In this document: piece after piece, positions 1 to 32,000 of the stretch
Position numbering within the stretch: the stretch's first letter is position 1
Layout: each line of letters opens with the position of its first letter
Source of the DNA: Candidatus Saccharimonadota bacterium
Lineage (GTDB): Bacteria; Patescibacteriota; Gracilibacteria; BD1-5; UBA6164
DNA: 32,000 nt
Reading direction: 5' to 3'
Assembly: GCA_004563595.2 (NCBI GenBank)
Contig: CP042461.1
Coordinates: 840,001-872,000 of the forward strand
Made by a program: the position numbers and the translations under genes
Notes under the pieces: model-generated
Databases searched by the model: none
What the model was told of the DNA's origin: nothing
The model's input: only the letters and a program-made list of their open reading frames with translations

Positions 1-420
1 CTAACCAAATACATCTACTATCATAGTTTATTTTAATATTTGAATAAGTGGAAAACAAACAAAAAACTTATTCAAAAATTTTATCTATGGGTACTTGTAT
101 GTACAAGACAAAATTAAAACCCGATCATACAAGACTTAGATTAATAATCTATAAACTCTCCTAAGTAAAGTTTTATAGATTGTGTAGCAGGCCAGTCGGC
201 ACTCATCCCTTAGGAAGACTACAGCATTGCTGGCAATTAAGCAGCGAATGCTAAAGTATTAGATGTTACATTCGAAAATGCAGCAGTTAATCCTTTGTAA
301 GCTCTTTGAGCATTAGTTTTAGCAGTTATGCTTGTTTGTAATTGATTAAGGAAGTCACAAACATCTCCCTGATAGCATATAAGACGAGCGGATCTCCTAA
401 TAGAAACCATAAATAACCCC
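1..420 (-). ncRNA. ssrA: tmRNA (ssrA); 3' tRNA-like end probably lies beyond the window start
   Basis: The minus-strand RNA starts GGGGTTATTTATGGTTTCTATTAGGA (420 downwards), which fits the tmRNA 5' consensus GGGG-N7-TGGATTCGAC-GGGA. An internal tag frame reads GCT GCA TTT TCG AAT GTA ACA TCT AAT ACT TTA GCA TTC GCT GCT TAA (stop at 237-239), giving AAFSNVTSNTLAFAA*, a classic ..LAxAA tag end. Downstream there is an H-type pseudoknot ATCTATAAA/CTTAG/TTTATAGAT/CTAAG (180 down to 135) and further hairpins. No T-arm or ..CCA complementary to GGGGTTA is seen before position 1. Confidence 0.6.
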
Positions 421-428
421 TCAAGAAA

Positions 429-456
429 AGTATACTAAAAAAACAAAGAAAGTAAA
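429..456 (-). promoter_or_regulatory. candidate ssrA promoter (-35 TTTACT, 16-nt spacer, -10 TATACT)
   Basis: On the minus strand, TTTACT (456-451) and TATACT (434-429) are separated by 16 nt. The -10 ends 8 nt before the GGGG at 420. Confidence 0.35.
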
Positions 457-650
457 TAAAAATGTATTATGAATAAAATATTTTAGAATACAATATATGA
501 TATATTCAAGTCATAATTTCGTATAAAATTGCAAAAAAAACATATATTTGTATACTAAAGAATACAAATTATTTAGTTTTTTTTCTAACAAATGTCGCTA
601 ACTACTCAGAAGAATGATTAATCCTCCTTTAGTATTATTAATTCTGATTT

Positions 651-1535
651 ATGTATTGAAATTTAAGTACATCTTTTAATGAAATATTATCATCTTTAAA
701 TGAAAAAGATAGATGACTTTTGAAAGATGTGTATGATTTTTCATATAATGCACACTTCTGACAAAAAAGAAAGTCATGAGAAGACTATTTCATTCACCCA
801 CTTGCTGTTGGAATAAACCTCTGGAATAAGTTTTGAGATATAAATTTATTTTGTGCTTGATTATTACATGATGCAGTAGAGGACAATGATAATATTCATC
901 CAGTAAATATATATACAAACTTTTGAGAAGATATTGGATTTCTTGTTGATAGTGTGACTAAAAATGAACCGAGTTTCTATAATTGAACAAAAGTATTTGA
1001 AAAAAAAATTGATAAATTAATCGACTGAGGATGTGAGGATATAAGATGTTTTTTATTGAAATTAGCAGATAGAGAAGATAATCTAAAAACTCTTAGCAAT
1101 TTAAAAAACAATAAACAAGTAAGGATGGCATTTGAAACTCAAGCTATCTTTACTCCTCTTGAAGAACTCATTTGATATAAGGAGATTAAGAGCGTAAAAG
1201 AATGAGACAGAAAATTCCAAGAAATCCTGAAGAAAAATAATATAGAAGACTCTTGTCAGCTTAAAGATTACCTGATCAAAAGTACCTTTCATGATTTTAC
1301 AAATAGCTGTTTTGATACAGTTTACCAAAATTCTTGAAATGTAACTTGGAAAATTAAAAATAAAGAAACTTTTGAAGATTTATTAAAAATTCCAAACATA
1401 GATGATAAAATAGATATTGAATCTATTGAACATAAAGAAAATTGAGAATTCCTGGTAAACTTCAAATTTAAAAAGTGAGAAATTATGAATTATAACGTAA
1501 AGCTCGGTATTTGAGACACTTATTCCTTTGATTAA
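651..1535 (+). CDS. HD-domain protein, RelA/SpoT-type (p)ppGpp hydrolase-like N-terminus plus a C-terminal region of about 150 aa of unknown function
   Basis: The code-25 translation gives MYGNLSTSFNEILSSLNEKDRGLLKDVYDFSYNAHFGQKRKSGEDYFIHPLAV...CAGLLHDAVED...FLVDSVTK...LADREDNL. The Gly of GQ and of SGE are TGA codons. The frame is open from 642 to TAA at 1533-1535 (885 nt). Confidence 0.85.
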
Positions 1536-1540
1536 AAAAA

Positions 1541-2524
1541 ATGGACCAAATTTACAATTTAGATTCTGACTCTTCTTTATTAGATCAGCTATCTATTTGA
1601 ATTAGAAATAGAGATATTGAACAAAAATTTATATATCAATGAGATTGAGCAAAGTTGTATTATCAACAAAAAAATAGTAATCAACTTTATACTAATTGCA
1701 CATTAGAAAAAAAAGATTTTTTAACCTTCTTAAATAATGAAGTTATTTTAAGTTGAAAAAAAGTAGCAATAATAAGCCTATGATGTTGAAACTCATGAAC
1801 AGAAAAATTTATATTTGAAAACATTGATACTACAAATATAGACTATTTTTGAGTTGATTCATCCATTGATATGTTAAAATTAAGTATAGAAAATGTTAAA
1901 GAATTAAAAATGAATAAAAACTTCATTTGTGCTGACTTCTCTACTAAACATTTTAGACTAGAATTAGAACACTCCTCAAAATGATATGATGATAGAATAT
2001 TTGTATTTTTCAGTAATACATTCTGAAATATTAAACATACAAATATTATTGATATACTATGAAATCTTCTTGATACATGAGAAAAAATATGGCTTGATGT
2101 TAGATTAAGGAAATGAACTAGTATCCAAGATGATCTAGAACTCTCAAATATAATGGCAGGTGACTTAGCTAGAAAAGAAATTGAAAACTCATACCTTTGA
2201 GTATTAAAGCATTTATGAGTAAATGTCGAACATTGACAACTTGTTATGAAAACAAGTACAGAAAAAACAGTATGAGCATTAAAATTTATGTTCTCATTTT
2301 TATTTGAGGAAAAATCAGAAATTAATATAAAATGAGATAAGCTATTTATCCTCCCTGGTGAATCTGTAATGGTACAGGAAATATACACTTATGATCCTGA
2401 TAAATTAATCAATTTTTTTAACGAACATTGATTCAATTTCCTAGATAAACAAACTAAATGATATAGGTGACAATTTCTATTTGAAAAAAATTGAAGTTGA
2501 AAGACTAAAAAAAGAGATTCATAA
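1541..2524 (+). CDS. SAM-dependent methyltransferase, EgtD-like (Methyltransf_33-like)
   Basis: The ATG lies 5 nt after the upstream stop. The translation contains the SAM-binding loop VAIISLGCGNSGTEK and a FFSNTFGNI motif typical of EgtD-type histidine N-methyltransferases. Many Gly residues are TGA. The stop is TAA at 2522-2524 (984 nt). Confidence 0.7.
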
Positions 2525-2550
2525 ATGAATCTCTTTTTTTAGTCTTTTTT
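2503..2550. terminator. bidirectional rho-independent terminator
   Basis: A perfect 19-bp inverted repeat, gactaaaaaaagagattca (2503-2521) and tgaatctctttttttagtc (2526-2544), has loop taaa and is flanked by A and T runs. It lies between convergent genes. Confidence 0.75.
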
Positions 2551-3016
2551 ATTTAAACCATTTTTTCATAACTGAATCAAGTGCAAATGTTCATCCTCAT
2601 CTTAACATAAGAACAAGGGCCATAGCTCAAGCTAATATATGATACTCGATTCCATTTCATTCTTGATTCCCAAACCAGTCTATATAAAAACCGTATTGTA
2701 AATGTGCCATAAAAGCTGCTCCAATCATTATTACCAAGATTCAAAAAGCCATAAACCTTGTTTTAAATCATACAATCATTGCAAGAGCTCATAGTGATTC
2801 TCATAACACAACAAGCAAAGCAATTATATATGGCATTCACATCACACCTGTGAAAAATCACATAGTTCATTCAAACCCATTTCATCAAAAGAGACCAAAT
2901 AATTTTTGTCATCCATGTGCAAACATAACAATTCATAAAGTAACCCTTAAAATGAGTAAACCGTAATCTTTATCATCAGTGTCAAAAAATTTATACGAAA
3001 GTGTCTTAAAAGACAT
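2549..3016 (-). CDS. DoxX family membrane protein
   Basis: The code-25 translation is [66 protein letters not shown]...IEYHILAGAMALVLMLRGGGTFALDS, a DoxX-type pattern. Length is 468 nt. Confidence 0.8.
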
Positions 3017-3056
3017 AATATTATAGTTAAATAGTAAAACTCAATAATAGATTTAA

Positions 3057-3084
3057 ATTATATGCTCAATCTTGTATTTATCAA
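3057..3084 (-). promoter_or_regulatory. candidate promoter for the DoxX gene (-35 TTGATA, 16 nt, -10 TATAAT)
   Basis: On the minus strand, TTGATA (3084-3079) and TATAAT (3062-3057) are separated by a 16-nt spacer. The site is about 40 nt upstream of the ATG at 3016. Confidence 0.45.
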
Positions 3085-3102
3085 TAAAGTTTTAAAGTTT
3101 CC

Positions 3103-5357: not shown

Positions 5358-7262
5358 CTACATTTCATTCCCCTGATATCATACTTCAACTCCTCTGAGA
5401 TAATATTTAATAATCATTTCACTTGTCCATCACTTTGATGCGAAATAACTTGACCCGAGTCCTGATATTCAAACTCAGTGTCATAATCTTGTTTTTCATT
5501 TACTAGCATTATCAGAAACTGACTGTAAATATGGATATTGTTTTTTGAGCTCATCACAAACTTCTGTAACATTATTTTTTAAACAGTACTCTTCAAAACC
5601 AAGAGTTTTTCCATCACTTTGTGAGAAATACCAAGGTTTTATCAATTTTCAATCATACGTAATAATTTTATTTTTTGTTTCATCAACAAGAGTATTTACA
5701 TTTGGACTTCTTAGCTCAAGAGAGTAACCAAGATATTTTTGAAATACATTTGGATCATCTGAGGCATCATACCACTCTCATGGGAATTTTCTTGCTTTAA
5801 GCACATACCATAGAGCATAGGTTCTTGCTGAGGTTATAATAGTTTTTATTTTTTCTGAATTATCACCATTACTTACTTCTCATAATCACTTCAGGTAATC
5901 ATTCATAGGAAGTCTATTCACAACATGAAGTTGTTTATTTTTTACATATAAAATAATATCTCCTCTAAATTTATTATCATTATATTTCATATTTCTGTCC
6001 CAACTAGGAATTCTATTCCATGATAAGATTTCAACATATCATCATTTTTTTGATTTTAGATTAAATACCTTCTCTTTTTTTCAATTTATAATCAGGTAGT
6101 TCCCTTCTCTTGTTATATTATAGGTTTCATCACTATTTGTAAGCTCTATTTTATTATTACTTGGGTATGATAATTTTACTTTTATAAGTTGATTCGCTAT
6201 GTTAAGAGTTTCATTATTTCATTCTTGAGAGTTTGTTAATTCTTTATTTTTTACATATTCTATTATGTGATTTTTGATACTAGAAATAAGGTATATTTTT
6301 TCTGAAATATTTGATGTATTTTTTTCAAGGTGCTTTTCTATTTTTTCTAAAAGAATGAGTAAATTAAGTTCAGAAATTTTATCTAATTTCTTAAATAACT
6401 TTAGTTTATTAATTTTTGCTAACTGTGACCCATATCTTAACTCTGCTTTAATTCATTCAATTTGAGCATATAGAGCATCTCAAGGACACGTTGTAGTTCC
6501 TGCATCACGATGTCAAATAATACTATCAAGTTTAAAACTGTTCAAAGGGAGCTCACATCAATCTCACATACACTCTTTATGATAACTTTCTTGAGAGTTC
6601 AGATCAATAGAATACTTATTTACTAAAAATTTAGTGAGTGATTGAAGTGATTTTAATTGTTTCTCGTTAACTTTATTCACTGAATAATTTCCAATGAGTG
6701 CAATTCATATTGTAGAACGATTATTCCATTTATCGTGTGCAGCAACTGTATTTGCTCATCAAGCTCTTCATTCAAATATTTCTCCATCTTTTCAGATGAG
6801 AAAATTATATCAAATATCTCACCATTGTCTGGTAAGAGTATGAAATTTATATATTGATCTTACTCAACTATATGAATCATCGTATTCTGAATAAGTATGA
6901 TGAATAACAATAGAATTGATACTTTTTGTTTTTTGAATTGGCCACCTAAGACTATGTCAATTTTCTGTATAAATAGTATCTACTACTTTTACATCATCAT
7001 AATAATCTTTTACGAGAATTTCATTCATTTTCTTTGTTTTTTCTGCTCTTTTTCTTGCAACTTCTTTTTGTTCTTCAGATAATTCAACATACACAGCCTC
7101 ATCAGCTTTTTTAATGATACTTTGCCATTCTGGGGAATCCACATATCTATAGCTTTCATTCGCTCACCACTGCGATCTTGATATTATTTTTAGATCTTCA
7201 TTTGCGTAAGAGGACGTAAAAATAAAAAAAGTGGTAAAAAGAATGGCTAAAATTTTCCTCAT
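5358..7262 (-). CDS. secreted peptidoglycan hydrolase: N-acetylmuramoyl-L-alanine amidase (Amidase_2/PGRP-like) fused to a SpoIID/LytB-like domain
   Basis: The signal peptide is MRKILAILFTTFFIFTSSYA. The amidase_2 block is ISRSQWGA..IVIHHTYSEYDDSYSGVRSIYKFHTLTRQWGDIGYNFLIGKDGEIFEGRAGG..VAAHDKWNNRSTIGIALIGNY..GHRDAGTTTCPGDALY. The C-terminal SpoIID-like block is NDYLKGLGEVSNGDNSEKIKTIITSARTYALWY..YDASDDPNVFQKYLGY..KPWYFSQSDGKT..HGVGISGLGSSYFASKGWTSEMIIKYYLRGVEV. Length is 1905 nt. Confidence 0.85.
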
Positions 7263-8155: not shown

Positions 8156-8164
8156 TCTAAAATA

Positions 8165-8226: not shown

Positions 8227-8703
8227 ATGGATTATAAGACTTATATTAATGGATTAAATATCATCCTTATTGGATGCACAGATACAACTGAATATTATGC
8301 AAAATTACTAAGAGAGAATGAGATAGAAAATGTATCTATAGCATTAAACTCTTTAGAATTTACAATGTATTACAATGCACAAATAGAGGAAGAATACAAT
8401 GTTGTTAAAATAACTCCTTCCCTCTTGTATAATGCTGATGTATTACTGTTTGATTTAAGCTTTAATAACTCTAAAACATATAGGCAAATAAGCAATATTC
8501 GTAAAAGCAAAGGTACTTTTATATTTGTAGAAAATAGGATAATGAAAACCCCTATTGAAGAATTTTCACACACAAATCTGAATATCACTGCAATAACCAC
8601 AGAAAAAAATGTAATCCCATGTCAAAAAAAGACAAGTTCTAGTGGAATTATTAATCATTTTTTTCAACAGATTCTTAATGAAGAATTATGTATTGAAGAA
8701 TAG
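8227..8703 (+). CDS. hypothetical protein (158 aa), contains no TGA codon
   Basis: The ORF is intact in the standard-code track. An AAGGG lies 7 nt upstream of the ATG, and an in-frame TAA lies upstream at 8200-8202. It has its own promoter and terminator. I recognise no family. Confidence 0.6.
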   Translation: MDYKTYINGLNIILIGCTDTTEYYAKLLRENEIENVSIALNSLEFTMYYNAQIEEEYNVVKITPSLLYNADVLLFDLSFNNSKTYRQISNIRKSKGTFIFVENRIMKTPIEEFSHTNLNITAITTEKNVIPCQKKTSSSGIINHFFQQILNEELCIEE

Positions 8704-10286: not shown

Positions 10287-10634
10287 CTATCTAATAAAAA
10301 TTTCTTTTATTTTTTCTGGTGGTCTCCCTATGACAGCTCTTATTTCATCATATACTATAGGTCTTTGCATAAGCTTTGGAAAATGAGCCATTTTCTTTAA
10401 AATCTCAGTATCAGATGAACCTTTTGTGAGTCATTGTTCTCAAAATTCTGGTTCATTCGTTCTGGTAAAATCTATAGCTTTTATCCCTAATTTTTCTTGT
10501 AAATCACGTAATTCATCAAGATCAAGTGCATTTTTTAGATATGCTCTTAAAATATATCTTTTTCAAGACTTATCCATGAGCTTTAATGCTTCTCTAGACT
10601 TTGAACACCTTGGGTTGTGTAGAAATATATACAT
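10287..10634 (-). CDS. ArsC/Spx/YffB-family thioredoxin-fold protein
   Basis: The translation is MYIFLHNPRCSKSREALKLMDKSGKRYILRAYLKNALDLDELRDLQEKLGIKAIDFTRTNE...MQRPIVYDEIRAVIGRPPEKIKEIF. It carries the N-P-x-C-S-K-S-R signature. Length is 348 nt. Confidence 0.8.
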
Positions 10635-10639: not shown

Positions 10640-11842
10640 TTAATTAAAAATTATATTCTTTATTAACTCCGTTATTTTAACTTTGTTATGTTTATAAAAA
10701 CTCTCATCGTCAAGCAAGTCTGCTTCTATTACTTGTACTTTTCTTCTCTCTAGCTCCGACCTTTCTCTATTACTTAAAAATAGAAAATCTCATCATTTTA
10801 CAGATATATCATCTTGAAATTTTTTATATTCTAGAGGAGTTAAATCAGGCTTTTTATTATTTACAATAAAGTAATCTATTCTTTTTCATAAAAACATTTC
10901 CACCTTATTCACAAAATCTATTTGAGCGAGACCAGTTGTCTCTCATCATTTATTAGTTGAATTTCAAATATAGATTATTTTTGCATTTGATTCACATAAC
11001 GATTCTCTCACTCAACCAATAATGAAGTTTGAAATAATTGATGTAAATAGATCTCATGGCCCAATAATTATGTAATCAGATTCTACTATAGTGTCATGAA
11101 CTTGTTTATTATGAGAAGCATCTTGCGAACAATGATTGAGTACTAAATCAGAAATTCAAGAATTATATGAAGCAACATTACTTATTCTATCTTGAGATTC
11201 TATAACGTCCCCATTTCATAAAATAGCTTTTATACGAGCTCTTTTTGTTGTAACTGGGATGACTTTTGCTTTTACTTCTAATAAAGTATGCATAAAATCT
11301 ATCATTTTATCATAATCCTGATCAAAGTTATAAAACAAACTTGCCATAAGAATATTTCCAAATTTATGTCATTTAAGAGATGAATGAAGAGGAAGCTTAA
11401 AATCGAAAATATTTGAATAATTGTTATTCAATAGATGAAATAAATCTCCATCTGAAAAATCTACAAACTTAATAAGCTCTTCTTTTAAATCTCATCATCT
11501 TCAAAAAAATAAAAGCTCTTTATTTACTTGCTTAAACAAGTCAAAAATAGTGAATTCTCATATTTTTTCCTCATTTAAAAAAGTATATTCAAATACAAGC
11601 TTAAAATAGTCTCTATATTCTGATGAAGAAAGTGAAAATAAACACCTTCTTAAATCTCCTGGAGGAGGTAAGTGTAAACCAAGATCATCATGAAAAGCCT
11701 TCATTAATTCTCATGTTGTTCTTCCATCATCACTCATTGATACAACTGATGTTATTGATACTCTATCATCTAATGAATGATAAAATGCATCGAGTAGATT
11801 AGATTGCCCATTTCAACCTCAGATTGTTGTAATTTTTAGCAT
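10640..11842 (-). CDS. YvcK/CofD-like (UPF0052, gluconeogenesis-factor family) protein
   Basis: The translation is MLKITTIGGGNGQSNLLDAFY..VVSMSDDGRTTGELM..LPPPGDLRRCLFSL..DYIIIGPGDLFTSIISNF. It is longer than typical family members because of insertions. Length is 1203 nt. Confidence 0.8.
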
Positions 11843-11845
11843 AAA

Positions 11846-12715
11846 CTATATTTTTAAACTTTTTATAAAATCTTTTAGTTCACCTTTTAGATCATCTCTT
11901 TTCAATCAATAGGCAATAGAGGCTTTTAAAAACCCTATTTTTGATCCTGTATCATACCTATCTCATTGGATATTTACTCAATAAATATCTTGATCTTTTC
12001 TCATGAGCTCAAAAGCATCAGCAAGTCTTATTTCATCATCTCAACTTCCTGAAGATGATTTCTCTAAATAATCAAAAATTTCAGGAGTAAGCACATATTT
12101 TCAAATCACTCATGAACGAGACTCTGTTTCACTTGATTTTGGTTTCTCTAAAAACTTTGATACTTCAAAAGTTTCTCTATCAGTTGAATTTGTTTCTATG
12201 ATTCAATAATTTGAAACATCTTTATCTGAAACTTGAACTGTAGCAATAACTGGGTTATGTTTTCTCTCAAAAGCATCTACTAATTGACATGCTGCACTAA
12301 CTTCATTATCAATGATATCATCTCAAAATAAAACAAGGAATGGTTCATCTCAAATTAGATTTTTTGTTCTCAATATAGCTTCTCAGTCTCCTTTTGGATA
12401 TGGCTGTCTCACATATACAATATTTGCCATATTATTGAGTCATTTGATAGTTTTTAAGTACTCAAACTTTCATGATTTATCGAGTCTTTCTTCTAGCTCA
12501 AAATTTGAATCAAAATGATCTTCGATAGCTCTTTTACTTCTTCATGTCACAATAATAATATCTGTACATCAAGCTGAAATTGCCTCTTCAACCAAGAGTT
12601 GCATCACAGGTTTATCTATAATTGGAAACATTTCTTTTGGGAGAGCTTTTGTGGCTGGTAGAAACCTAGTTCCAAATCATGCTGCTGGGATAACACATTT
12701 TCTTATCTTTTGCAT
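11846..12715 (-). CDS. galU: UTP--glucose-1-phosphate uridylyltransferase
   Basis: The translation is [103 protein letters not shown]. By hand count, about 15 of its Gly codons are TGA. Length is 870 nt. Confidence 0.9.
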
Positions 12716-13974: not shown

Positions 13975-14005
13975 AATCATATAATTAATAATATAAAACT
14001 TATTT

Positions 14006-17966: not shown

Positions 17967-19208
17967 TTATTTTCAAACTTTTCTAATTGCAGAGAATCTT
18001 TTTAATACTGTTGGGTGTGAATAGTAGAAAAACTCATATGCCGGGTGCGGTCTCAGGTTTGAAAGATTATTTCTAGAAAGCTTTGTAAGAGCTCAAACAA
18101 GCAATTCTCCATCTATATGCTTTGCAGCAAATTCATCAGCTTGATATTCATTTCTTCTTGATAATACATTTCCAAATAGCCCTAATATAATCGATATTGG
18201 AGTGAAGAGTATTCCAAATGCAATTGCTCATACATGAAAACTTCATTGTGTTGCTCCTAAAGCCATAGAAACTTCATCAAAACTAAGAGCTAATCAAAAT
18301 ACATATAACATAAACCCTGTTTGGACCGTAGAGAAGGCTAACATTTGAAGAGTATGTTTTCTCTTATAATGTCCAATTTCATGAGCAAGCACAGCCACAA
18401 GTTCATCTACTGATAAATCTTTGATAAGAGTATCATATAACACTATTCTTTTCTTTGGTCAAAAACCTGAAAAATATGCATTTGCTTTGCTTGATCTCTT
18501 TGATCCATCAATCACAAATATATTATCTAATTTAAATCATACTTTTTTTGCAAATTTTTCAATCCCATCTCTCAGATCTCATTTATCAAGAGGAGTTTGT
18601 TTATTAAAAATTGGTACGATGAGGCTTGAGTAAAACATCATAAAGAATACTGACATAAAAGTTGCTACTCACCAAGCATATACCCAGAATAAGTTTCAAA
18701 CACTCGTATAGATAAAGACTATAAGTGATAACAGTACTCATCATATAATAGCTGATAGCAGAAGGGATTTTATCGTATCAAGAAAAAAGAGTTTTTTTGT
18801 CATTTTATTAAACCCAAATTTTTCTTCTATAACAAATACTGAATACAGTGAGAATGGAAGTCCAATAGCAGTTTGAACAAGAGTGATAATTCAAAAGAAA
18901 TATAAAGCCATTACTATTTCAGAACTTGTAAGTCCTCTTACAAATATGTCTAACCAACCAAACCCTCCAAAGATTAATATAAGAAGCATAATTGTAAAAG
19001 AAAATATACTTCAGAAAATTCCAAATTTATACTTAGTTTTTTCGTAATCCATTGATTTCTTGTATTTTTTTTCATCATAAATCTCTTTTAATTCTTTTGG
19101 AAGTTTATTCGTCCAATTCAGAGTGTTTAGATATCATAATAATTTTGTTAATAAAAATTCAAATAACACTAGTACAATAATTATGTAAAAAATAGTTTCA
19201 ACTGTCAT
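17967..19208 (-). CDS. M48 family (Ste24/HtpX-like) zinc metalloprotease
   Basis: It is a multi-TM protein with ..[64 protein letters not shown]. Length is 1242 nt. Confidence 0.85.
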
Positions 19209-19276: not shown

Positions 19277-20149
19277 TTATTTCCCAAAATAAACCAATAC
19301 TACTCACAATACAATAAAAATTCAAATCAGAAACTTTCTTGGTAAATTACTTTCTTTAAAAAAGATTCATCAGAGTATAATAGTAAATAACATTCATGCT
19401 GTTTTGATAGCAGACATATATCAAATAAATATATATTGTATTGCCGTCATTTGGGCTATATGTCATATGGCATAAAAAACAAATGTTCCAATAAGTACAA
19501 GATAGCTATTCTTAATATACTGGATATCTTTTTTATATGTTTTTAGAAATCAAAATAGGCTCGTGAAAAATAAAAATATATTCATTATGAATAACCAAAA
19601 AATTGGGTATGTTTCTAAAACTCAAATTTTATCAAAAATGTTAGTAAAACTATAACAAACTACTGTAATGAGAAAAAACTGAGATCATTTATTGGTAAAT
19701 ATATGTTTTATAGGTTCGAAAAAATTTGTATGGTATTTTTGAAAGTTCAAGAAATATACTCAAAACAGTATGATAAATACTCATAATATTCAGAAAAGAT
19801 TCGGAGTTTCTTTGAGTAGGATAAATCACAATAATAATACTCCAACTGTAATTAATCAATTTAATGGTGAAATATATGAAATATCTTCTGATTGTAATGC
19901 TTTAAAAGAAAATAACTTTCAAGCATAAAATAATATCCCTGAAAATATGAACACAAGAATAAGCTTTCATGTTATTTCTGGAATTCAAATATACAATACA
20001 AAAGGAAACCAAAAAAGAATACTCAGCCCTGACAATATAAATACAAGCGTATTTGAATTTATATTCTTTAAATTAGTTTTTTGAAAAATTCACTTTGCAG
20101 AGTGTGAAAAAGCAGTGAGAATTGCCAATAAAAATCAAATTGTCTCCAT
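19277..20149 (-). CDS. EamA/DMT-family transporter
   Basis: The protein is 290 aa and polytopic: METIGFLLAILTAFSHSAKGIFQK..SYISPLNGLITVGVLLLGFILLKE..YMSAIKTAGMLFTIILGGIFFKE. The duplicated EamA-like halves are recognisable. Length is 873 nt. Confidence 0.75.
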
Positions 20150-20189: not shown

Positions 20190-21668
20190 TTATATTTTCT
20201 CTACTCTACTTCCCTCTCTATTATCAATAATTTTATATCCAGCTTCTTCTAATTCATTTCTCATTTTATCAGCTCCTTCAAAATCTTTATTTTTTTTTGC
20301 TATATTTCTTGCTTCAAGTTTTTCCTGAATATCTTGTGGAATATCTTCTGTAAGTTCTTCTAAAATAGAAAAATCTATAATTCATAAAACTTCATTAAAA
20401 GTTTTAAACATATCAAGTAAACTTTTTTCTTCATCTAAACTAAATGATTGATCTGCAATTCATGTATTCACAAACTTTACAAAACTATGAAACTCAGCAA
20501 GTGCCTCTGGCATATTAAAATCATCTTCAAGTCTTTGCATATATTCAGAAAGTATAATTTGCATTTCGTTTCTAAAAACTCTTGAAATCATAAGTACTTT
20601 TTTCTCTCCTGTTTGTATACTTCTATCTAATGTTTTGATTGTCTCATCAATTTTTTTAATAGTATTCAACGCTTGTTCAAGTTTTGAAAAAGAAAAATCT
20701 ATACTGTCTCTATATTTTCCGTTTATAAAAGAGAGTCTGATTGCTCTATAGAGAATTCAAGTATTTACATCTGAGAATTTTTCTTCTAAGTCTTTAAGTG
20801 TATAAAAATTTCAAGCTGATTTTGACATTTTTTTCCCATCCACAGTTAAGTGACCTCAATGTAACCAGTACTTAGAAAATTCCTTTCTAGTACATGCCTC
20901 AGTTTGTGCTACTTCATTTTGATGATGCGGAAATAGGTTATCTATTCATCACATGTGAATATCAATTTGAGCTCAAAAATACTTCATATTACAAGCACTA
21001 CATTCAATATGCCAACCTGGACGTCCTTTTAAAGTTACTCTTTCGCCATTTATTTCAAAACTTCCCTCCCAAAAATTATCTCCATCTTCTTTTTTATACA
21101 CTTTCCAGAGTGCGAAATCTGCTGCTGATTCTTTATCATACTCATCATTATCAATCCTCACTGATTCTTTCATTCACGACATATCTAAGTTTGCAAGCCT
21201 TCCATATTTTTTAAAACTTTTTACATTAAAATAGATACTCCCATCATCAGAAAGATAAGCATTTTTTCTATTCAGCATTGTTTGAATCATTCTTACCATT
21301 TCTGGTATCAATGTTGATACTGGGACAACATTATCAGCTTCTTGTATTCAAAGTTTTTTAGTGTCCTCTAAAAAAGCTTTTGTATATTTTTCTGTAAATG
21401 GTATTAATTTTTCTCATGCAGCCATACTATCTCTGATAGTTTTATCATCAATATCTGTTATATTCATTGTAGTTGATAATTTATATCACAGAAACCTTAG
21501 TGATCTTACAACAATATCTTCATATATATAAGTTCTTAAATTTCAAATATGAGCATAGTTATATACTGTTGGACCACAATAATATACTTTTACTTCTTGT
21601 TGTTTTAATGGTTTAAATTCTTCTTTTTTTCTTGTTTTTGTATTATAAACTTGCATTAATTTTTTCAT
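20190..21668 (-). CDS. cysS: cysteinyl-tRNA synthetase
   Basis: The N-terminus is [47 protein letters not shown], with the HIGN Gly encoded by TGA. Later motifs are ..[26 protein letters not shown]. Length is 1479 nt. Confidence 0.93.
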
Positions 21669-22079: not shown

Positions 22080-22154
22080 GCCGGGGTAGCTCAGGGGTAG
22101 AGCAGGGGCCTGAAAAGCCCTGTGTCAGTAGTTCAAATCTACTTCTCGGCACCA
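22080..22154 (+). tRNA. tRNA-Phe (anticodon GAA), CCA encoded
   Basis: A hand-folded cloverleaf gives acceptor GCCGGGG/TCTCGGC, D-arm GCTC-AGGGGTA-GAGC, anticodon arm GGGGC-CTGAAAA-GCCCT, and T-arm AGTAG-TTCAAAT-CTACT, followed by ACCA. Confidence 0.9.
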
Positions 22155-22233: not shown

Positions 22234-22319
22234 GCGAAGGTGGTGAAATTGGTAGACACGTACGCTTGAGGGGCGTATGATCCTAGATCGTGAGGGTTCA
22301 AGTCCCTTTCTTCGCACCA
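22234..22319 (+). tRNA. tRNA-Leu (anticodon GAG), long variable arm, CCA encoded
   Basis: GCGAAGGTGGTGAAATTGGTAGACAC is close to known tRNA-Leu 5' halves. The anticodon arm is TACGC-TTGAGGG-GCGTA, the long variable arm is TGATCCTAGATCGTG, and the T-arm is GAGGG-TTCAAGT-CCCTT. Confidence 0.9.
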
Positions 22320-22424: not shown

Positions 22425-22892
22425 CTAAGTTTCAACACGATAACCAATTTTTACATCTGATGTACATAGTTTTGGATCATAAGTAATATCAATAGGTAAT
22501 GTTATTTTATCAAATTTTACTATATCTGACATTACTTTGTCATTTGTAGTAATTGAAACAGCATTACCTTGAATTTCTATTAAAATAAAACTTGTACCGA
22601 TGCTATAAAAGGCTGTTTTTAAATACTTATCATTAAGCTTGATATCATTTTGACCAAATTTCTGAACAGTTACATTCATACTCATTTTATTAATTTTTTT
22701 AATATTAACTTTCGCAGAATCTTTTGGAGAAGATGGATTTTCCATATAAACAAAACCTTCTTTCCATAGTACGTTACGTTTATATTCAATATTTCCTAAT
22801 GTAGATATCAATGGTACTGAAATGCTTTTGCATGTATTAGCAGCCATTAAATTACTAGAAAATAAAAGTAAAACTAAAAATACTCTTAACAT
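22425..22892 (-). CDS. hypothetical secreted protein P1 (155 aa), TGA-free, paralog of P2
   Basis: The ORF is intact in the standard-code track. The signal peptide is MLRVFLVLLLFSSNLMAA, and AAGGA lies 8 nt upstream of the ATG. There are two Cys (NTCKSISVP near the N-terminus and DPKLCTSDV near the C-terminus). All 6 Gly are GGN codons. Confidence 0.75.
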   Translation of the reverse strand: MLRVFLVLLLFSSNLMAANTCKSISVPLISTLGNIEYKRNVLWKEGFVYMENPSSPKDSAKVNIKKINKMSMNVTVQKFGQNDIKLNDKYLKTAFYSIGTSFILIEIQGNAVSITTNDKVMSDIVKFDKITLPIDITYDPKLCTSDVKIGYRVET

Positions 22893-23036: not shown

Positions 23037-23525
23037 TTATGTAAACTTACTTTTCATAGGGACTTCTTCCATCCTTACAAATGAGCTGCATGATTCAGGC
23101 TTAAATGAAAGAGATATCTTTAAATTTATCTGACTCAATTGATCTAAAGGATATCTTTTTGTCACCGTTTCTAAATATGATTTTTCTATAAGTACATGTG
23201 AAGCAAGGTCAGTATTTACTTTCATTTTAAAGCTATGTTTTACTTTTTTACCTTCAAATAATATAGATCCATCACTATGGATAAGAAAATTATCTTTCAC
23301 AACCACATGCTGAGCTGCTGGATAAATTTTTTTATTTCCAGTTGTGTATACACCATCTGGCCTCCATTCAATAAAAAGAGACTTCGCAGTTCTACCGTCA
23401 ATTATCTGTTCAACATTAACCGGTATTTTTTCACATATTTGATCCCCAGGAATACGTTGTAATCCAGCAGAAACATTTGCTACCATACATAATAAAGAAA
23501 ACAAAGATATAATTCTATAAAACAT
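23037..23525 (-). CDS. hypothetical secreted protein P2 (162 aa), TGA-free, paralog of P1
   Basis: The ORF is intact in the standard-code track. The signal peptide is MFYRIISLFSLLCMVANVSA, and AAGGAG lies 6 nt upstream of the ATG. The Cys pair (DQICEKIPVN and KPESCSSFV) is positioned as in P1. All 7 Gly are GGN codons. Confidence 0.75.
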   Translation of the reverse strand: MFYRIISLFSLLCMVANVSAGLQRIPGDQICEKIPVNVEQIIDGRTAKSLFIEWRPDGVYTTGNKKIYPAAQHVVVKDNFLIHSDGSILFEGKKVKHSFKMKVNTDLASHVLIEKSYLETVTKRYPLDQLSQINLKISLSFKPESCSSFVRMEEVPMKSKFT

Positions 23526-23614: not shown

Positions 23615-25915
23615 TTACTTCACTACCCTTCTTGGTATTTCATAATAATCAAATAAATAACTCGCAACATCATTGAAAACAAATGCAGCTGTTTGTCACC
23701 CAAAATTATTTGTTCTAGGTCTATCAAGTTTCACTATAATTACAAACTTTGGATCTTCTGCTGGTCAAAATCAAGCATAAGATGCAATAGTACTTCAAAC
23801 TCATTTTTCATATATTCATTTATATGGAATTTGTGAAGTTCCGGTTTTTCATCAAACAGAATATCATAATACATTTCAATTCTTAGCTGCTCCATCTTTT
23901 GCTGATGAAACTAACATTGATACAATAATTTTTGAAGTAGATTCCTTTATAACTCTTCTTTCAAGTTCTTTTTTGTACTTTATAACTTTGTTGTTTGAAA
24001 ATTCTATATAATCAATAATTCTAGGTTTAATATATATTCATCAGTTTACAAGAGTACTATACGATGATGCCATTTGAAGAGGAGTGACACTCACTCATAA
24101 TCAATAAGAGCTCGTAAATAGTTTTGCTCTTGACCACTTCTCCCATGGGGTAACTTGTGAAAATACTTCTCACTCTAAAGTAATTCAAGTTAATTCATTA
24201 AAGCCAAAATCTGTAAAATATTGATGTAATAAAACTTTTCAAATCCTTTGAACTATTCTAATCATTCAAACATTACAACTAAAATTCAATGCATGTGCAA
24301 AGCTATGGTATCCAAGACACTTATCAGAAACATTTTTAATAGTAAAACTATCAATTGTAAGCTCTCACTTATCCATGTACATACTATATCTATTTATTTC
24401 TCATGTATCAATTCATATAGCAACAGTAAGAGCTTTCATAATTGATCCTGGCTCATATAATGATGAAATAGCATCATTTTTATAAACTTGTGGTCAAAAA
24501 TCATTTTTATATTTATATTTCACCAATGCATTTTCTCATAATTCTTCTCTAACTGCTCTTCTTAAAAGTATTTCTTTTGAATCATAATAAAATTTATCTC
24601 AGTTTTCTTTATCTTCAACAAATACAGGAAATCAAAGAAGGTCAACTTTTGGGTCAGGATATTTTGAAAATCTTACTTTTTCAAGTTCGTATACATCTCA
24701 ATAATTGTTCAGATTATATGTTGGATAATTTGCAATAGATAAGACTCTTCATGTTTTGGGTTCCATAACAACTATCGTCCCCTTATTTGCTCTGTACCTC
24801 TTTACACCATTCTCTAAGATTGTTTCTACTTTTTTTTGTATATTTCTATCAATCGTTGAATGAATTTTAATTCATTCTCAAATAAAATCTTCTTTCTTTA
24901 AATCAATCGGGTTAATTATTCTTCATAAGACATCTTTTTTACTTACAATTTTTCCATTATTTCATTTCAAAATATCATCAAAATATCACTCAATTCAATA
25001 ATGCCCCACTCATTCAGAATCTACAAATCAAATTAACTGTGATCCTACCTCTTTCTCTGGGTAATACCTATGTGGATTTGGTGTTAAGATGATAAAATTT
25101 CAAATGCTATTTATTCTATCTAATATACCATTTTTTAACGCAATATTTTCTTCCTCGAGATAATTTTTAATGTATTCTGAAACTGATATTGATAATTTAT
25201 TTAAAACTGGAATATATCTGAGTTCTCTTTTCCTAATAAGGTGCTTAATTTTTTTCTCTGTCATTCATAATATAGATGAGAGTTCTTTTGAAGCATACTC
25301 ATCACTATCAATTTCTTCTGGATTTACATATAAGAACTGTCAGCTTGGATATAATCATTTTATTCATAAATTTATGATTTGAGTTATTTCTTCATTATCA
25401 AGTTCTTTATCAATAAAAACACTGTTTACTTTTGTTTGGTTTAATTTCGGAGTCAAATATGCAGAAATAAGGTCTTTAATAAGCAATTCATCTTTTCTAA
25501 AATCCTCAATTTCTAAAACACGTAAAAACTTCAATAGGTTTTTATAACATTCTTTTTTTGAATTCAGATAACAAAGTTGCTTGTATGAAACTTCCGTTAA
25601 AAATTTTTGTAATTTATCCTTATTTCATTCCATCTTTGGATCAATCGCAATATTATACAAATTCAGTGATGTTCCTAGAATCGTACCTTGATTGGTTGAG
25701 GAATAAATGGTCCCCCTTGTAACGGGTACTGTTACTTCTCAGATTTGTTGTCTATCAGCTAATTGATTGTAAAAACTATAATTGAGAACTGTATATGCAA
25801 AAAGATTGTAGATAATTATAAGAAAGAATAATACAAAAAAAACAGCAATAACATATATTCTATTACATCAGTCAAAATATTTTTTAGCTTTTTGTATTAT
25901 CTTATTTTTTTTCAT
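23615..25915 (-). CDS. class B penicillin-binding protein (PBP2/FtsI-type transpeptidase)
   Basis: An N-terminal TM anchor is followed by VVMEPKTGRVLSIANYPTYN. The catalytic motifs are YEPGSIMKALT (SxxK), NFSCNVGMI (SxN) and GGKTGTSQI (KTG). Length is 2301 nt. Confidence 0.9.
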
Positions 25916-27303
25916 ATATTTTCTTCTATCGGATAAAAATCTATCTTTGTTTTTATTTCAGCAGGTATTATATCTTCATCATATACTTTTAAAAGTTTAT
26001 TTTCAATTTTGATATAATCATTTTTTTTCATATTCTTATCAACCTCTTTTATGAAAATTCTTAATATATACGGAGTCTCATTGTAACAAGTATTTTCAAT
26101 AGTTTTTTTCATAGCCAATATTACTTCTTCGTTTGTTCATACACATTCAAAAGGCTTCATTCATGAAACACCAAGAAGCTCTTTGAATAGTTTTTCTAGA
26201 TCTTTTCTTTGATATAAATCTTCTCAGAAGATATCAATAACTTCCTGTTTGTTAATAAAAGGTCTTAGGATAGAAAATACAAACGCACACTTAGGACAAT
26301 TATTACACCAAATTCATTGATGGGCTTTGGTTGTATTATGTATCTTAAAGTTATTATTACAACTTGAAAATGCTTGGAAATATTTCGTTCAAAGTTTTGT
26401 AAATAATTCAGCTATTTTAAATTCATACATTCATCTTAAAAGAGAAAAGTACTTCACATCTGATGAAATATATTTCTGTACATAGAGAGCAAAATCTTCT
26501 TCAAACTCTAAACTTTTTGAATACTGATGATTTACATCTACTCATTCCCACTCAGTATTTCAAAAATTTGCAGAACGTTCATTTGATAAAACAAGATATT
26601 TATAATCATATAAATATGCAATTACTTCCATAGCAAAGGCTATTATTCAAGTTATAGGGACATGTCCGTTAAAATATCAGCTTTCGTTTAGTTCAAATAA
26701 TTTTTGAGATATTTTCCTTGTGACAAGAAAATTATTTTTTCAAATTATATTTATGCAAGATTCTTTAATGCTATCAGTTTTTCCAAATACAAAAGTATCA
26801 AAACCAATTCACGCTTTTTTAAAAAGCTCCATGGATACAAGAGAGTCTTTTCCTCAACCAATCGCAACAAGTGCTCTATCTTTCAAGAGAAAATCTTTTT
26901 TTTGTAATTTCTTTTCATGATTACTTTCAAAGTGGAACAAATTTTCTGGGAAAATTTTATTTATAAATAAAAATTCTCAGAGTCAGTTCTTGTAAAATTT
27001 TTTCCAAAAAGATACTTGATAACTATCTAGATATCATGAATCAACTATTAATTTCGAAGTTGGATAGGCTTTATAATAACTAATCCCTAAAGCCATATGA
27101 AGATGAAAAAGTAAATTATCTAAAATTTCAAAATCTAAGTCCGATCTCAGATCAAAATTGGGATCATCAAAAGATATTACTTCTTCAAAGTAAGTTTCTC
27201 TATCAAAAGAGTATATAAATTTTGCTTCTAAATTCACAAGATCAAATGTGTAGTTTTCAAAATAGAATTTTTTTCAGTCTGAGTGATAAGTAATTTTATT
27301 CAT
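25897..27303 (-). CDS. PP-loop (adenine nucleotide alpha-hydrolase superfamily) ATPase-like protein with C-terminal Cys cluster
   Basis: The motifs are ..KDRALVAIGGGKDSLVSMELFKKAG.. (PP-loop SGGxDS-type), ..LSNERSAN.. and ..WCNNCPKCAF.. The gene reads through the apparent ATGA overlap (TGA=Gly) and ends at TAA 25897-25899, overlapping the PBP gene by 19 nt. Length is 1407 nt. Confidence 0.75.
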
Positions 27304-27497
27304 TTATGGTCACCAAAAATAACAAGTAATAATATATATCATATTAATTAGGAATTGAAATTTTACAATTTTTATTTGTGGTTTATTATTTTTTTCATAT
27401 ACTACCCTGCGTAATTTACTGGCGTATTTTTCTGGTTTATTACACTTTTCAGGAAATTCACTGAAAAAACTATTTATATTTTCTTAAAAATACAACA

Positions 27498-27767
27498 ATG
27501 AGTGTAACTAAAGAAGTAAAAAAAGATATTATTGCTGATTTTGCAACAAATAAATGAGATACAGGTTCAACTGAGGTTCAAATAGCTATTTTAACAGCTA
27601 AAATTGAAAACTTAAAAGACCATTTACAAGAACATAAAAAAGATAATCATTCTAGAAGATGAATTATGTTAATGGTAGCTAAAAGAAGAAAACTTCTTTC
27701 ATATTTAAAAAGAAAAGATCCTACTAAATATACTGAAGTATTAGAAAAACTAAATCTTAGAAAATAA
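27498..27767 (+). CDS. rpsO: 30S ribosomal protein S15 (uS15)
   Basis: The translation is [89 protein letters not shown]. It has 2 TGA Gly codons. Length is 270 nt. Confidence 0.92.
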
Positions 27768-27796
27768 AAAAAACTCTGCAAAAGCAGAGTTTTTTT
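27768..27796. terminator. bidirectional terminator shared by rpsO and rel
   Basis: The hairpin is aaaactctgc-aaaa-gcagagtttt with flanking A and T runs. The rel stop codon (27795-27797) lies in the T-run. Confidence 0.75.
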
Positions 27797-29993
27797 AATG
27801 CATAATTTTTTCTAACGAATGACTAACAAGGTCATCTCAATAATATAATTTTACCCTATCAATCAGTCTATCAATAATAAGGTAGTCGTAATCAGGAATA
27901 ACGAGCTTCAAGGATAATCATGTATTTAAATTTCAAATTTTCTTAGATATTATTTCTTCAATGTTTATATCCATTGAAAATAGTATCTCAGTTAAACTTT
28001 TTAACATTCAAATTTTATTCTTTAAAACAAAATTTATAGAGAATTCCAAACTTTGTGATTCATATCACTCTACATATGTTGGTAATAATCTTTCCTTATT
28101 TACATCTCTTAATATCTTACAATCTCTTTTATGAACGGTTAATATTCATTTTGAATTTATGTGTGAAACTATAGCATCTAAAGTTTGCTTTTTACAGCAC
28201 TGACAATATGTATATTTTAGATTTGCTTCTCATCATATTATTACTTTACGTTTATGTGTATTTTTTTTCTTTTTAGCTGAATCTAAAGCTTTTGCTTCTG
28301 ATCACTTTACATCAATTTTATTACTTTTAATTATTCTTTTCAATAAAATTGATGGAGTAATATTAAAACTTCCTACCTCCTCTAATAAGGTCCATCTATT
28401 CTCCGTAGAATATTTCTTTCCATCAATTACTTTTAATAATGATAAATCTTTATCAAAGACTCATAATCAAAGTTTATCTAGATACTTATTCATAATATCT
28501 TTCCCTCTTTCTCTGTGTAATTCTTTATCTTCTTTCTTTAAATATGATTTTACACTATTTTTTGCTTTTACTGTTTTTAAAAATGATATCCGGAAAGGAC
28601 TTGGTATTTTATTTTTATCAATGATTATATCAACGAAATCTCAATTATGTAATTCTTTATCCAATGGATAAATTTTATCATTTACCTTGGCCATACTAAT
28701 ATGATTTCATAGCTCAGTATGAACATAATAAGCAAAATCTACTGGAGTCGAACCATGAGGTAAGTTTATTAAGTCTCATTTCGGGGTAAAAACAAAAATT
28801 CTATTTTTAAACATATCGATTTTAAGCGATCAAATGAAATCACTATCAACTATATTTTGAGTAAGATCCTTTAATTCTTTAATCCAATCTATATCCTTCA
28901 CTATACTACTTCACTTTTCTTTATATTCAAAATGAGCTGCTACTCATATATCTGAATATTCTTTCATTTTGTATGTTTTGATTTGAATCTCTGTTGGTTG
29001 TTTCCTGTGTTCTTTTAAAAGTCATATCACAGTAGTATGAATACTTTTATAACCATTAGGTTTTGGAAGAGCTATATAGTCTTTAAATCGATAAGGGAGT
29101 GGTGACCACTTATTATGAATAAGTCATAACACTCTGTAACAATCTGATAAGTCTTTTACAATAACTCTTATTCAAAATAAATCATGTAAATCTTCTATAT
29201 GATCAATTCATTTTTTTGTTAATTTTTTATGAATAGAGTAAATAGACTTCACCCTATAATCAATTTCATAATCTTGTACTTCTCCATCTAAAATTTTTTT
29301 TATTTCTACTCTTACATTTTTCAAAAAAGACTCTCTAGAATCTTCCATTTCTTTCAGTTGTTTCTTTATTTTTTTATAATTTTTTATATCTAATATTTTT
29401 AAACACTCCTGATCAAGTTCATTTTTAAAATTATAAAGCCCTAACCTATCAGCAATTGGAGAAAATATATTTATGGTTTCCAGTGCAATTTTTTCTCTTT
29501 TTTCTGGTTTTGGATGAAATTTTAATGTCCTCATATTATGAAGTCTGTCCGAAAGTTTAATAAAAACCACTCTTAAATCTTCTGCCATAGCAATAAACAT
29601 TTTCCTCAAACTTCAGACTTCTCTTTGTTCTCATTTATATCTTACTTTTGAAAGTTTTTCCATTCCTAAACACAAAAAAGCAACCTCATCACCAAATATT
29701 TCTTGAATATCCTCAGCTGTTCTAGGGGTGTCTTCGATTACATCATGAAGTAAACAAGATTGGATGGTATATATATCAGGTTTTAAACTTAATAATATTT
29801 TCGTTGCTTCAACTGGATGAATAATATAAGGGTCTCAAGATTTTCTATACTGTCATTCATGAGCTTCTTTTGCAAATATGTACGCTTTACGAATTTCGAC
29901 GTCAATAAAATCAGGGGACAAATTTTTCATGTAACCCTTTACATTTTTTATAATTCCATCTACTTTTTTATCAATCTTGGTATACTGCGTCAT
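27795..29993 (-). CDS. rel: bifunctional (p)ppGpp synthetase/hydrolase, long RelA/SpoT homolog (HD + synthetase + TGS + ACT-like)
   Basis: The HD motifs are [30 protein letters not shown]. The synthetase region is [41 protein letters not shown]. The TGS region is [32 protein letters not shown]. Length is 2199 nt. Confidence 0.92.
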
Positions 29994-30131
29994 TTAAAAA
30001 TAATAAATAATATGTGCTATTGATATTATATGATAATCTTTTTAAGATTTTTGCAAATATTTCTTTACATAAAAGCAAAAAACGATAATATGAGCTTGTT
30101 TTTATTATATTTTTAATATCTAAGGAATCTT

Positions 30132-30962
30132 ATGAGAAATCTAAAAAATACAGCATTCACACTTGTTGAACTTCTTGTAGTAATAACAATCCTAGCAATT
30201 ATATCAGTAGTTGCATATCAAAATTTTGGATGAGCCGTTGATAAAGCTGTTTCTGGAAGAAAAATAAATGATATATCAACTATTGAAACTGCATTACAAC
30301 AATATAAAGTAGATAATAACTACTATCCTGCTACAGAGGCATATGATGCTTCAGCAAACATGTGGGGATATAATTCATGAACTACTGCAAAACCATCAAA
30401 TACAATAGATGTTACATATGACAAAGCTGAAATAACTATCTTAGATAATGCAGATGGAGGATGAAAAGTATACTGATTAAATGACTGATCAACTGACTGG
30501 ACTGCTAAACAAATCTGAGCTAAGTGAACAATATCAAGAGATATTTTAGGAAAGAAATATTTATCTAAAGATTTATATGATCCTGAAAATTGAGATTTAA
30601 AAATATGATCAAAATTACTTATAGATAGCTGAGTATGAAGATACGTATATGCCACATATAAAAAAGCTAAGTCTAGTTGAGATTGGACTCAAAATTATAA
30701 TGGGACAAATTATAACCTTGCATTTACAATCAAAGAAAACTGAACTGATAAATATGTAACCAGAATTGTTGGTGATTATGATGAAGAGTCATGTTATGAC
30801 GATAAATTACTCTGTCCATCTACTCTTATTTGATCTTCAAATACTATACTTATAGATAAACAAGAGGAATGAAAAACATCATCTTGAACTGCTCTTGCTA
30901 ATTATGATTCAAAACAAGCGGATCAATGAATTCCTTATGCAGTGACTGATTTTGCTGAATAA
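30132..30962 (+). CDS. type IV pilin / pseudopilin-like protein (276 aa)
   Basis: AAGGA lies 5 nt upstream of the ATG. The N-terminus is MRNLKNTAFTLVELLVVITILAIISVVAY, a class III signal and N-methylation motif with Glu at +5. The globular part is large and Gly-, Asp- and Thr-rich, with many TGA Gly. Length is 831 nt. Confidence 0.85.
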
Positions 30963-30973
30963 TTTTAATTACT

Positions 30974-31007
30974 AAAAAACTGAAGTGTTTACACTTCAGT
31001 TTTTTTT
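30974..31007. terminator. bidirectional terminator (pilin gene / methyltransferase gene)
   Basis: The hairpin is aaaaaactgaagtg-ttta-cacttcagttttttt. The stop codon of the minus-strand methyltransferase (30989-30991) lies in the loop. Confidence 0.75.
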
Positions 31008-31654
31008 ATGATTGAAATTATATTTCTTTGATTATCAAATAATCTATTCTCAATTACTTCAAATCATGATTCTTTAAAAAGATACTCGAGTTCAGATATA
31101 TCAAAACAATGATAATATCTTTCAAATTCTCATATTTTTATATTATAATCTATACTTCAAAATTGATTTTCTGTTCAAACTATGACACTCTTATCATATC
31201 TTTTTCTATTAAAATCACTGTTTAATGCCCAATTTGTCATATATATTTTTCATCATTCTTCTAGTAAAGCATAAGTTTTTTTTATGACCTTTCATCTTTC
31301 TTCTAGAGTTTGCAAATGATGGTATGAAGCAAAGAAAAATATATGAGAAAATTTATTTTTTATTTCATCAAGATCAAGCATATTTAATTCCTGAAAATTA
31401 TATTCAGGATATTGTTTTTTTGCTTCATCCAGTAATCATTTAGATAAGTCTACTCAAAGATAATTTTCTGAAGTTATTTTATCAGAAAACCTAGATTTTA
31501 ATTCTCATAGAAAACGTCAATTTCCACATCAGATATCAAGAATACTAATAGATTCACCATCTAAAATATTCCCTAAAAAATAATCCATTTCTGGCCATTT
31601 CATATTTTTTCTTGAATCTGAGAATGTTTTTGCAAAACTATTATAATCTACCAT
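30989..31654 (-). CDS. class I SAM-dependent methyltransferase
   Basis: The translation is MVDYNSFAKTFSDSRKNMKWPEMDYF..ISILDIGCGNGRFLGEL..YLGVDLSKGLLDEA..HIFFFASYHHL..LLEEGGKIYMTNW. Length is 666 nt. Confidence 0.8.
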
Positions 31655-31669
31655 ATTTTATTTTTATAA

Positions 31670-32000
31670 TTACATTTTTTCTGGCATTTGAATACCAAGA
31701 ATTTCAAAACTATCCTTTAATACTATTGTAAATAATTCAACTAATTGTAATCTAATTATTTTATTCTCCTGATTTTCTTCATTGAGTATATGAACTGTAT
31801 TATAAAAACTATTAAACTTTTTTGTGAGATCATATGTATAAGTACATAAATGATGTGGCATATTGGTATCAGCCGTTTTTAATAAAATATCTCAATATTC
31901 TCAAATAGACTTTACCAGCTCTACTTCTTCAGAATGTTCAAATTTTCCTATATGGGTACCTTCAAGAGACAGCTCTACATTTTTATTATAGAAATTCTCT
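31670..32000 (-). CDS. argS: arginyl-tRNA synthetase, C-terminal (DALR anticodon-binding) part; 5' end lies outside the window
   Basis: The translation is ..EEVELVKSIGEYGDILLKTADTNMPHHLCTYTYDLTKKFNSFYNTVHILNEENQENKIIRLQLVELFTIVLKDSFEILGIQMPEKM*. This is the typical ArgRS C-terminus ending in Met. Confidence 0.85.

Follow-up and report, generated by a model that had tools for sequence, protein, structure and literature searches.

Translation table 25, the Candidate Division SR1 and Gracilibacteria code, was reportedly described by Campbell et al. and by Rinke et al., both in 2013. The present study concerns the use of this code, and in particular the meaning of the codon UGA, in a stretch of 32,000 nucleotides (hereafter the window) of sequence CP042461. 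With UGA read as glycine, the translations of UvrB, GalU, methionyl-tRNA synthetase (MetRS), cysteinyl-tRNA synthetase (CysRS) and ribosomal protein S15 were letter for letter those of the GenBank entries given in table 1, and the window belongs to the genome of Candidatus Gracilibacteria bacterium 28_42_T64. Its assembly appears under o__BD1-5 as s__MAAV01 sp004563595, and both BD1-5 and Absconditabacterales lie within GTDB class JAEDAM01. A first-pass annotation, made from the sequence alone, had placed the DNA in the Patescibacteria/candidate phyla radiation (CPR), which was borne out by this source.

According to Sieber et al. 2019 (PMC6851277), CP042461 is a closed genome of 1.343 Mb with 28.87% GC, in which genes were called by Prodigal with the setting -g 25; prfA was present and no prfB could be found. 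In the Codetta study (Shulgina & Eddy 2021, PMC8629427), UGA was independently inferred to encode glycine in assembly GCA_004563595.2, order BD1-5. Validation of this assignment by proteomics in another BD1-5 bacterium is attributed to Hanke et al. 2014 in PMC6851277. The reading of UGA as glycine is already published and annotated for 28_42_T64 itself, and no novelty is claimed for it here.

In the window (27.8% GC), 13 open reading frames (ORFs) of at least 80 amino acids were found under table 11. Stop-to-stop open stretches of 100 codons or more covered 19% of the sequence with the standard stops and 94% when TGA was taken as sense, compared to 30% for TAG and 69% for TAA as sense codons. 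With TGA as sense, 29 coding sequence (CDS) models tiled the window with short spacers between them, and together they contained TGA in frame 385 times and GGN 223 times, so that TGA would make up 63% of the glycine codons. In order to keep the Pfam searches unbiased, TGA was translated as a neutral X. Matches close to full length and spanning many TGAs were obtained, e.g. profile positions 1-390 of 391 for MetRS and 2-300 of 301 for CysRS. UvrB was recovered with five domains and the Rel/SpoT protein as HD_4, RelA_SpoT and TGS, alongside a GalU-type nucleotidyltransferase, a CofD/YvcK protein, a PBP2 transpeptidase, an M48 peptidase, an Ion_trans K+ channel, and members of the Band 7, DoxX, ArsC/Spx and EamA families, an Amidase_2 plus SpoIID protein, a pilin and a methyltransferase. 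UGA is read through in the conserved genes of the window.

The amino acid inserted at UGA was assessed by aligning five proteins (UvrB, MetRS, CysRS, GalU and Rel) with crystallised homologs (PDB) from organisms that use the standard code. TGA positions were aligned to glycine in 73 of 113 cases (64.6%) and to tryptophan in one (0.9%). As a glycine control, GGN positions fell on glycine in 66/93 cases (71%) and never on tryptophan, and as a tryptophan control, TGG positions fell on tryptophan in 16/22 cases (73%) and never on glycine. All other residues were aligned to glycine in 60 of 3189 cases (1.9%) and to tryptophan in 15 (0.5%). The enrichment of glycine at TGA columns over this background was very strong (Fisher p = 1.6e-82), TGA and GGN did not differ in their alignment to glycine (p = 0.37), and TGA and TGG differed clearly in their alignment to tryptophan (p = 5e-15). 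TGA columns are glycine columns. The composition of the window was also normal only with TGA as glycine (6.45% Gly and 0.63% Trp, as opposed to 2.36% Gly and 4.72% Trp with TGA as tryptophan), further supporting this assignment.

Individual motifs named in the first-pass annotation behaved in the same way. On the minus strand, the Walker A motif of UvrB at 5125-5148 appears as *VT*S*KT in table 11 and as GVTGSGKT in table 25, and contains three TGA codons. The motifs PHIGH (16121-16135), HIGN (21540-21551), IGGGNG and GGKDS (26842-26856, in the gene proposed as 'PP-loop GGGKDS') were all found, as was the K+ channel filter TVGFGD at 17304-17321 with its two TGA-encoded glycines. Tryptophan encoded by TGG was recovered in LWWG (17337-17348) and WGDIGYN (6804-6824). 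The UvrB segment SCIYGI is likewise present and followed by TGA, but the coordinate had been set one codon off, since this TGA occupies 4816-4818, while 4813-4815 is GAT (Asp). Taken together, it is nearly certain that in the window UGA specifies glycine and UGG tryptophan, with UAA and UAG as the only stops (table 25).

It might be argued that UGA has a dual role, i.e. that it mainly encodes glycine yet still terminates some genes in a context-dependent manner. The window alone is compatible with such a scheme. Every CDS does end in TAA or TAG, as had been pointed out, but this outcome is automatic once TGA counts as sense and therefore gives no independent support. Independent support comes from the ortholog lengths in six relatives, which agree with the TAA/TAG-terminated models (732-757 amino acids for Rel, 766-780 for PBP2, 450-468 for MurL and 88-89 for S15). 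Moreover, prfB is reported absent (PMC6851277), hence no factor would be available to recognise UGA, and a dual role is considered very unlikely.

Tryptophan at UGA (table 4), which Mycoplasmatales and several endosymbionts of insects use, would suit the low GC content of the window, these organisms being likewise AT-rich, and several public pipelines have indeed placed tryptophan at TGA in the genes studied here. Translations of this kind from the 28_42_T64 genome were found for S15 (P0009), GalU (P0010, MGYP001942307575) and Rel (P0256), which agrees with the warning in the first-pass annotation that table 11 or table 4 would yield wrong proteins. The alignments, however, put tryptophan at a single TGA column out of 113 as against most of the TGG columns, table 4 would leave the proteins with 4.7% Trp and 2.4% Gly, and the invariant glycines of Walker A, of the HIGH motifs and of the K+ filter would be replaced by tryptophan. 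Table 4 decoding is therefore refuted at the residue level, and we regard it as extremely unlikely. The mistranslated proteins P0009, P0010 and P0256 occur in MGnify/IMG/ENA/Logan-derived collections beside the correct GenBank versions with glycine.

The fact that each conserved gene falls into pieces under table 11 could in principle also reflect the standard code together with pseudogenes, or assembly errors, that create premature TGA stops. In agreement with the initial observation that every break inspected was a TGA, all 385 interruptions are TGA, with no TAA, TAG or frameshift among them, and they lie specifically on glycine columns. An independent ENA assembly (L159) was identical to the window across 14.2 kb, and the same ortholog architecture was seen in six relatives. 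This explanation is refuted by the glycine-specific placement of TGA and is hardly credible.

Of the genome (1.34 Mb), 40 kb were covered, namely the 32 kb window and an 8 kb extension. The decoder tRNA was sought mainly in relatives. The pattern used comprised G1-C2-G3/C70-G71-C72, U73, U8, U33-UCA-R37 and the T-loop, and was scanned against one genome per species. At least 120 matching stretches were obtained, in 76 of which ARAGORN called a tRNA with a tca anticodon; the remaining 44, in which no such tRNA was called, came from unrelated phyla and fit chance matches. The 76 listed tRNAs consisted of 49 of a 79-nt type, 23 of a 74-nt type and four oddballs. Thus, at least 72 Gracilibacteria/Absconditabacteria loci carry a tRNA(UCA) with the glycine acceptor set. 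The 79-nt type, from BD1-5/Gracilibacteria metagenome-assembled genomes (MAGs), is nearly invariant; its D-arm is enlarged, its loop is CTTCAAC and the CCA is encoded. UBA6164, GN02-872 and HOT-871, the relatives on either side of 28_42_T64 in the Codetta table (PMC8629427), carry one and the same sequence of this type. The exact 79-nt sequence was found again in 34 metagenome contigs. In the minimum free energy fold of the BD1-5 tRNA(UCA) the acceptor and T arms were regained and the canonical D/anticodon cloverleaf was not (z = -1.6), so that the tRNA call rests on ARAGORN and conservation.

The 74-nt type of Absconditabacterales is quite different, with a CTTCAGC loop, and many of the MAGs that carry it bear 'Candidatus Peribacteria' as their record label. 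The existence of two unlike forms of tRNA(UCA)-Gly (loci L003-L121) raises the question of separate decoder recruitment by sister orders. The four oddballs, with a Gly-type acceptor stem, were found outside the UGA=Gly clade in MAGs assigned to Anaerolineaceae (L006), Akkermansia (L038), Archangium (L087) and Woesearchaeota (L107), and may represent contaminants, suppressor tRNAs or miscalls by ARAGORN.

By default, ARAGORN labels a tca anticodon as selenocysteine, but UGA as a selenocysteine codon is refuted, and virtually impossible. The 385 UGAs account for about 4% of all codons and lie on glycine columns, not on Cys/Sec ones, and the tRNAs of relatives, 74-79 nt long, have an acceptor stem of 7 bp, glycine acceptor features and no long variable arm.

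Some points weigh against UGA as a glycine codon in 28_42_T64. About 35% of the TGA columns were aligned to residues other than glycine, which nevertheless corresponds to ordinary divergence, since the figure for GGN glycines is 29%. The evidence for 28_42_T64 itself is at the sequence level, the proteomics having come from another BD1-5 bacterium, and the absence of release factor 2 (RF2) is taken from Sieber et al. 2019 (PMC6851277). No tRNA(UCA) was present in the window or the 8 kb extension, and among the matches listed in the pattern scan none was from CP042461. Of the 34 loci recovered by an exact 76-mer search of metagenome contigs, none was attributable to 28_42_T64. Synteny was of no more help: the best 120 matches to the PF05552 membrane protein that adjoins the tRNA in relatives did not include CP042461, and no match from CP042461 was obtained with the BASS transporter that lies beside it in four loci whose GC content is about 30%. 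From what is already established and from what is seen in the relatives, glycine at UGA would be inserted by a dedicated tRNA(UCA) with the glycine identity set G1:C72, C2:G71, G3:C70 and U73, charged by glycyl-tRNA synthetase, and loss of RF2 would take away the competition at this codon. For CP042461 both tRNA(UCA) decoding and RF2 loss are inferred from relatives and publication, and its tRNA(UCA) is expected to be nearly identical to GCGGGGGTAACATAAAAGAGTGAGTGTACTAAGGCTTCAACCCTTGGGTGTGCGAGTTCAAACCTCGTCCCCCGCTCCA.

A second codon also attracted attention. In the window CGA occurs four times and CGG once, the latter at residue 468 of Rel, where it is aligned with the tryptophan of PSQDWVK in B. 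subtilis Rel. Long RelA/SpoT enzymes have a conserved tryptophan at the equivalent column. In 120 BD1-5 orthologs, column 468 was W in most (83), with 'R' in 33 and Y in the other 4, and its neighbours were near-invariant (P464 120/120, P466 120/120, F467 117/120 and F471 120/120). A CGA control site in the same protein was R in 115/120. The 'R' at position 468 was encoded by CGG in 7/7 sampled sequences (L156-L162, six relatives and the independent assembly of this genome), which differed from each other at the adjoining synonymous sites.

CGG and CGA columns were surveyed across seven genomes, with 23,928 codons in 11 ortholog families. CGG was found in three columns, and in 3/3 it corresponded to TGG or Trp in other genomes: the Rel column had CGG in all seven genomes and Trp in outgroups, while the PHO4 and PBP2 columns had CGG in one relative only (L157) and TGG in the other genomes. 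In 2/2 CGA columns, AGA was found in other genomes. CGG accounted for 1.3% of the arginine-box codons and Trp columns for 0.7% of columns; the resulting chance of about 3e-7 for 3/3 overstates independence, because a single inherited event may lie behind the Rel column.

In the Codetta table (PMC8629427), CGG is given as '?' for this genome, with zero tRNA(CCG) and zero tRNA(UCG) for GCA_004563595.2, and CGG=Trp is predicted for two BD1-5 relatives. For this assembly CGG is rare, at 0.48 per 10,000 codons within aligned Pfam domains. Among the BD1-5 loci retrieved, none carried a visible tRNA(CCG). The columns suggest that CGG probably means tryptophan in a BD1-5 subclade and in this genome, where it is represented by one codon, and that R468 of Rel in GenBank is probably Trp. 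We lean slightly towards the broader proposal that table 25 is incomplete for this genome and subclade, CGG being read as Trp despite no reported tRNA(CCG) or tRNA(UCG). CGG would then either be decoded by an unrecognised tRNA or be a relic codon without assignment at a few Trp sites. This lead is a modest extension of the published Codetta prediction.

Three ORFs of the window contain no TGA, namely 8227-8703 on the plus strand and the two adjacent ORFs 22425-22892 and 23037-23525 on the minus strand. Together they have 17 glycine codons, and at a TGA share of 63% the chance of finding no TGA among these is 4.6e-8. Their GC and GC3 (GC at third codon positions) were the same as those of their neighbours. 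The two adjacent ORFs encode small proteins with signal-peptide-like N-termini, which are not paralogs, as BLASTP between them gave no alignment, and a search of 1.84 billion representatives with the 162-amino acid protein gave no match at E < 1e-10 other than the protein itself. An Rfam scan of the window detected two tRNAs only. Synteny of the window was common to six Gracilibacteria MAGs. Both adjacent ORFs and tRNA-Leu(GAG) were missing from the PBP2 to tRNA-Phe to CysRS interval of the relatives, which is suggestive of a species-specific insertion next to a tRNA gene.

The positions of the annotated features are given in table 1. The MurL-like gene (25897-27303), the one proposed as 'PP-loop GGGKDS', was the neighbour of PBP2 in all relatives examined. 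Our own Pfam scan with TGA as X gave no match for it, indicating that masking of 18 glycines can push a real family under the threshold.

Table 1. Annotated features of the window, with in-frame TGA counts for the protein-coding genes (aa, amino acids; SAM, S-adenosylmethionine).
Feature	Position	Strand	Remarks
Segment of CP042461 (Candidatus Gracilibacteria bacterium 28_42_T64)	1..32000		27.8% GC, 29 CDS models
HD_4 domain protein (small RelA/SpoT-like hydrolase)	651..1535	+	15 TGA
DoxX family membrane protein	2549..3016	-	15 TGA
UvrB, 722 aa	3103..5271	-	18 TGA; TGA=Gly translation identical to QFR39360.1
Amidase_2 + SpoIID domain protein	5358..7262	-	29 TGA
Hypothetical 158-aa ORF (QFR39363.1)	8227..8703	+	zero TGA
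ArsC/Spx family protein	10287..10634	-	3 TGA
CofD/YvcK family protein	10640..11842	-	18 TGA; IGGGNG at 11807-11824
UTP-glucose-1-phosphate uridylyltransferase (GalU)	11846..12715	-	15 TGA; TGA=Gly translation identical to QFR39368.1
SPFH/Band 7 protein	13021..13980	-	13 TGA
Methionyl-tRNA synthetase	14603..16186	-	19 TGA; TGA=Gly translation identical to QFR39372.1
Ion_trans K+ channel	17064..17915	-	10 TGA; both Gly of filter TVGFGD are TGA
M48 (Ste24-type) peptidase	17967..19208	-	15 TGA
EamA transporter	19277..20149	-	20 TGA
Cysteinyl-tRNA synthetase	20190..21668	-	13 TGA; TGA=Gly translation identical to QFR39377.1
tRNA-Phe(GAA)	22080..22154	+	position kept in relatives
tRNA-Leu(GAG)	22234..22319	+	none seen at equivalent position in relatives
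Hypothetical secreted 155-aa ORF (QFR39379.1)	22425..22892	-	6 Gly, zero TGA
Hypothetical secreted 162-aa ORF	23037..23525	-	7 Gly, zero TGA; QFR39380.1 begins at a later start
PBP2-type transpeptidase	23615..25915	-	43 TGA
MurL-like protein	25897..27303	-	18 TGA; precomputed Pfam MurL_N + MurL_epimerase_C
Ribosomal protein S15	27498..27767	+	2 TGA; TGA=Gly translation identical to QFR39383.1
Bifunctional Rel/SpoT, 732 aa (P0255)	27795..29993	-	25 TGA
Sole CGG codon of the window (Rel residue 468)	28590..28592	-	Trp column invariant in long RelA/SpoT enzymes
Type IV pilin-like protein (N_methyl motif)	30132..30962	+	17 TGA
SAM-dependent methyltransferase	30989..31654	-	12 TGA

The result for UGA is mainly of practical value: table 25 can be recognised by a reader from raw sequence, and the copies with tryptophan at UGA in public collections can lead homology searches and structure prediction astray. 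The observation on CGG weighs more. If CGG does encode tryptophan, GenBank proteins of a reference-quality closed genome would hold wrong residues at conserved Trp sites. A second reassignment, of a sense codon, would then have occurred on top of the first, which would make this a tractable case and would provide a closed-genome example of an intermediate stage of sense-codon reassignment.

Among the known systems, table 25 resembles the window in UGA as glycine, UGG as tryptophan, UAA and UAG as stops, low GC content and the reported absence of prfB (PMC6851277). With respect to UGA no difference was found; a possible difference is CGG, which is arginine in table 25 and lies on Trp columns here. 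The table 4 systems (Mycoplasmatales/Entomoplasmatales, Hodgkinia, Zinderia, Nasuia and Stammera) share the conversion of UGA from stop to sense, small AT-rich genomes, loss of RF2 and a tRNA(UCA), but the amino acid is tryptophan there and glycine here, as the 1/113 Trp columns indicate. The tRNAs differ accordingly, since tRNA(UCA) of the relatives has the glycine identity set with U73, whereas the tryptophan type has G73. The prediction of CGA/CGG as tryptophan in Absconditabacteria and some Gracilibacteria (PMC8629427) is similar in the extreme rarity of CGG and in its location on conserved Trp columns. CGA remains arginine in BD1-5, in line with the table of that study for this genome. 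While CGG is left there as '?' and no tRNA(CCG) is listed, the columns in the current study, with one codon in the window and 3/3 in seven BD1-5 genomes, extend the prediction.

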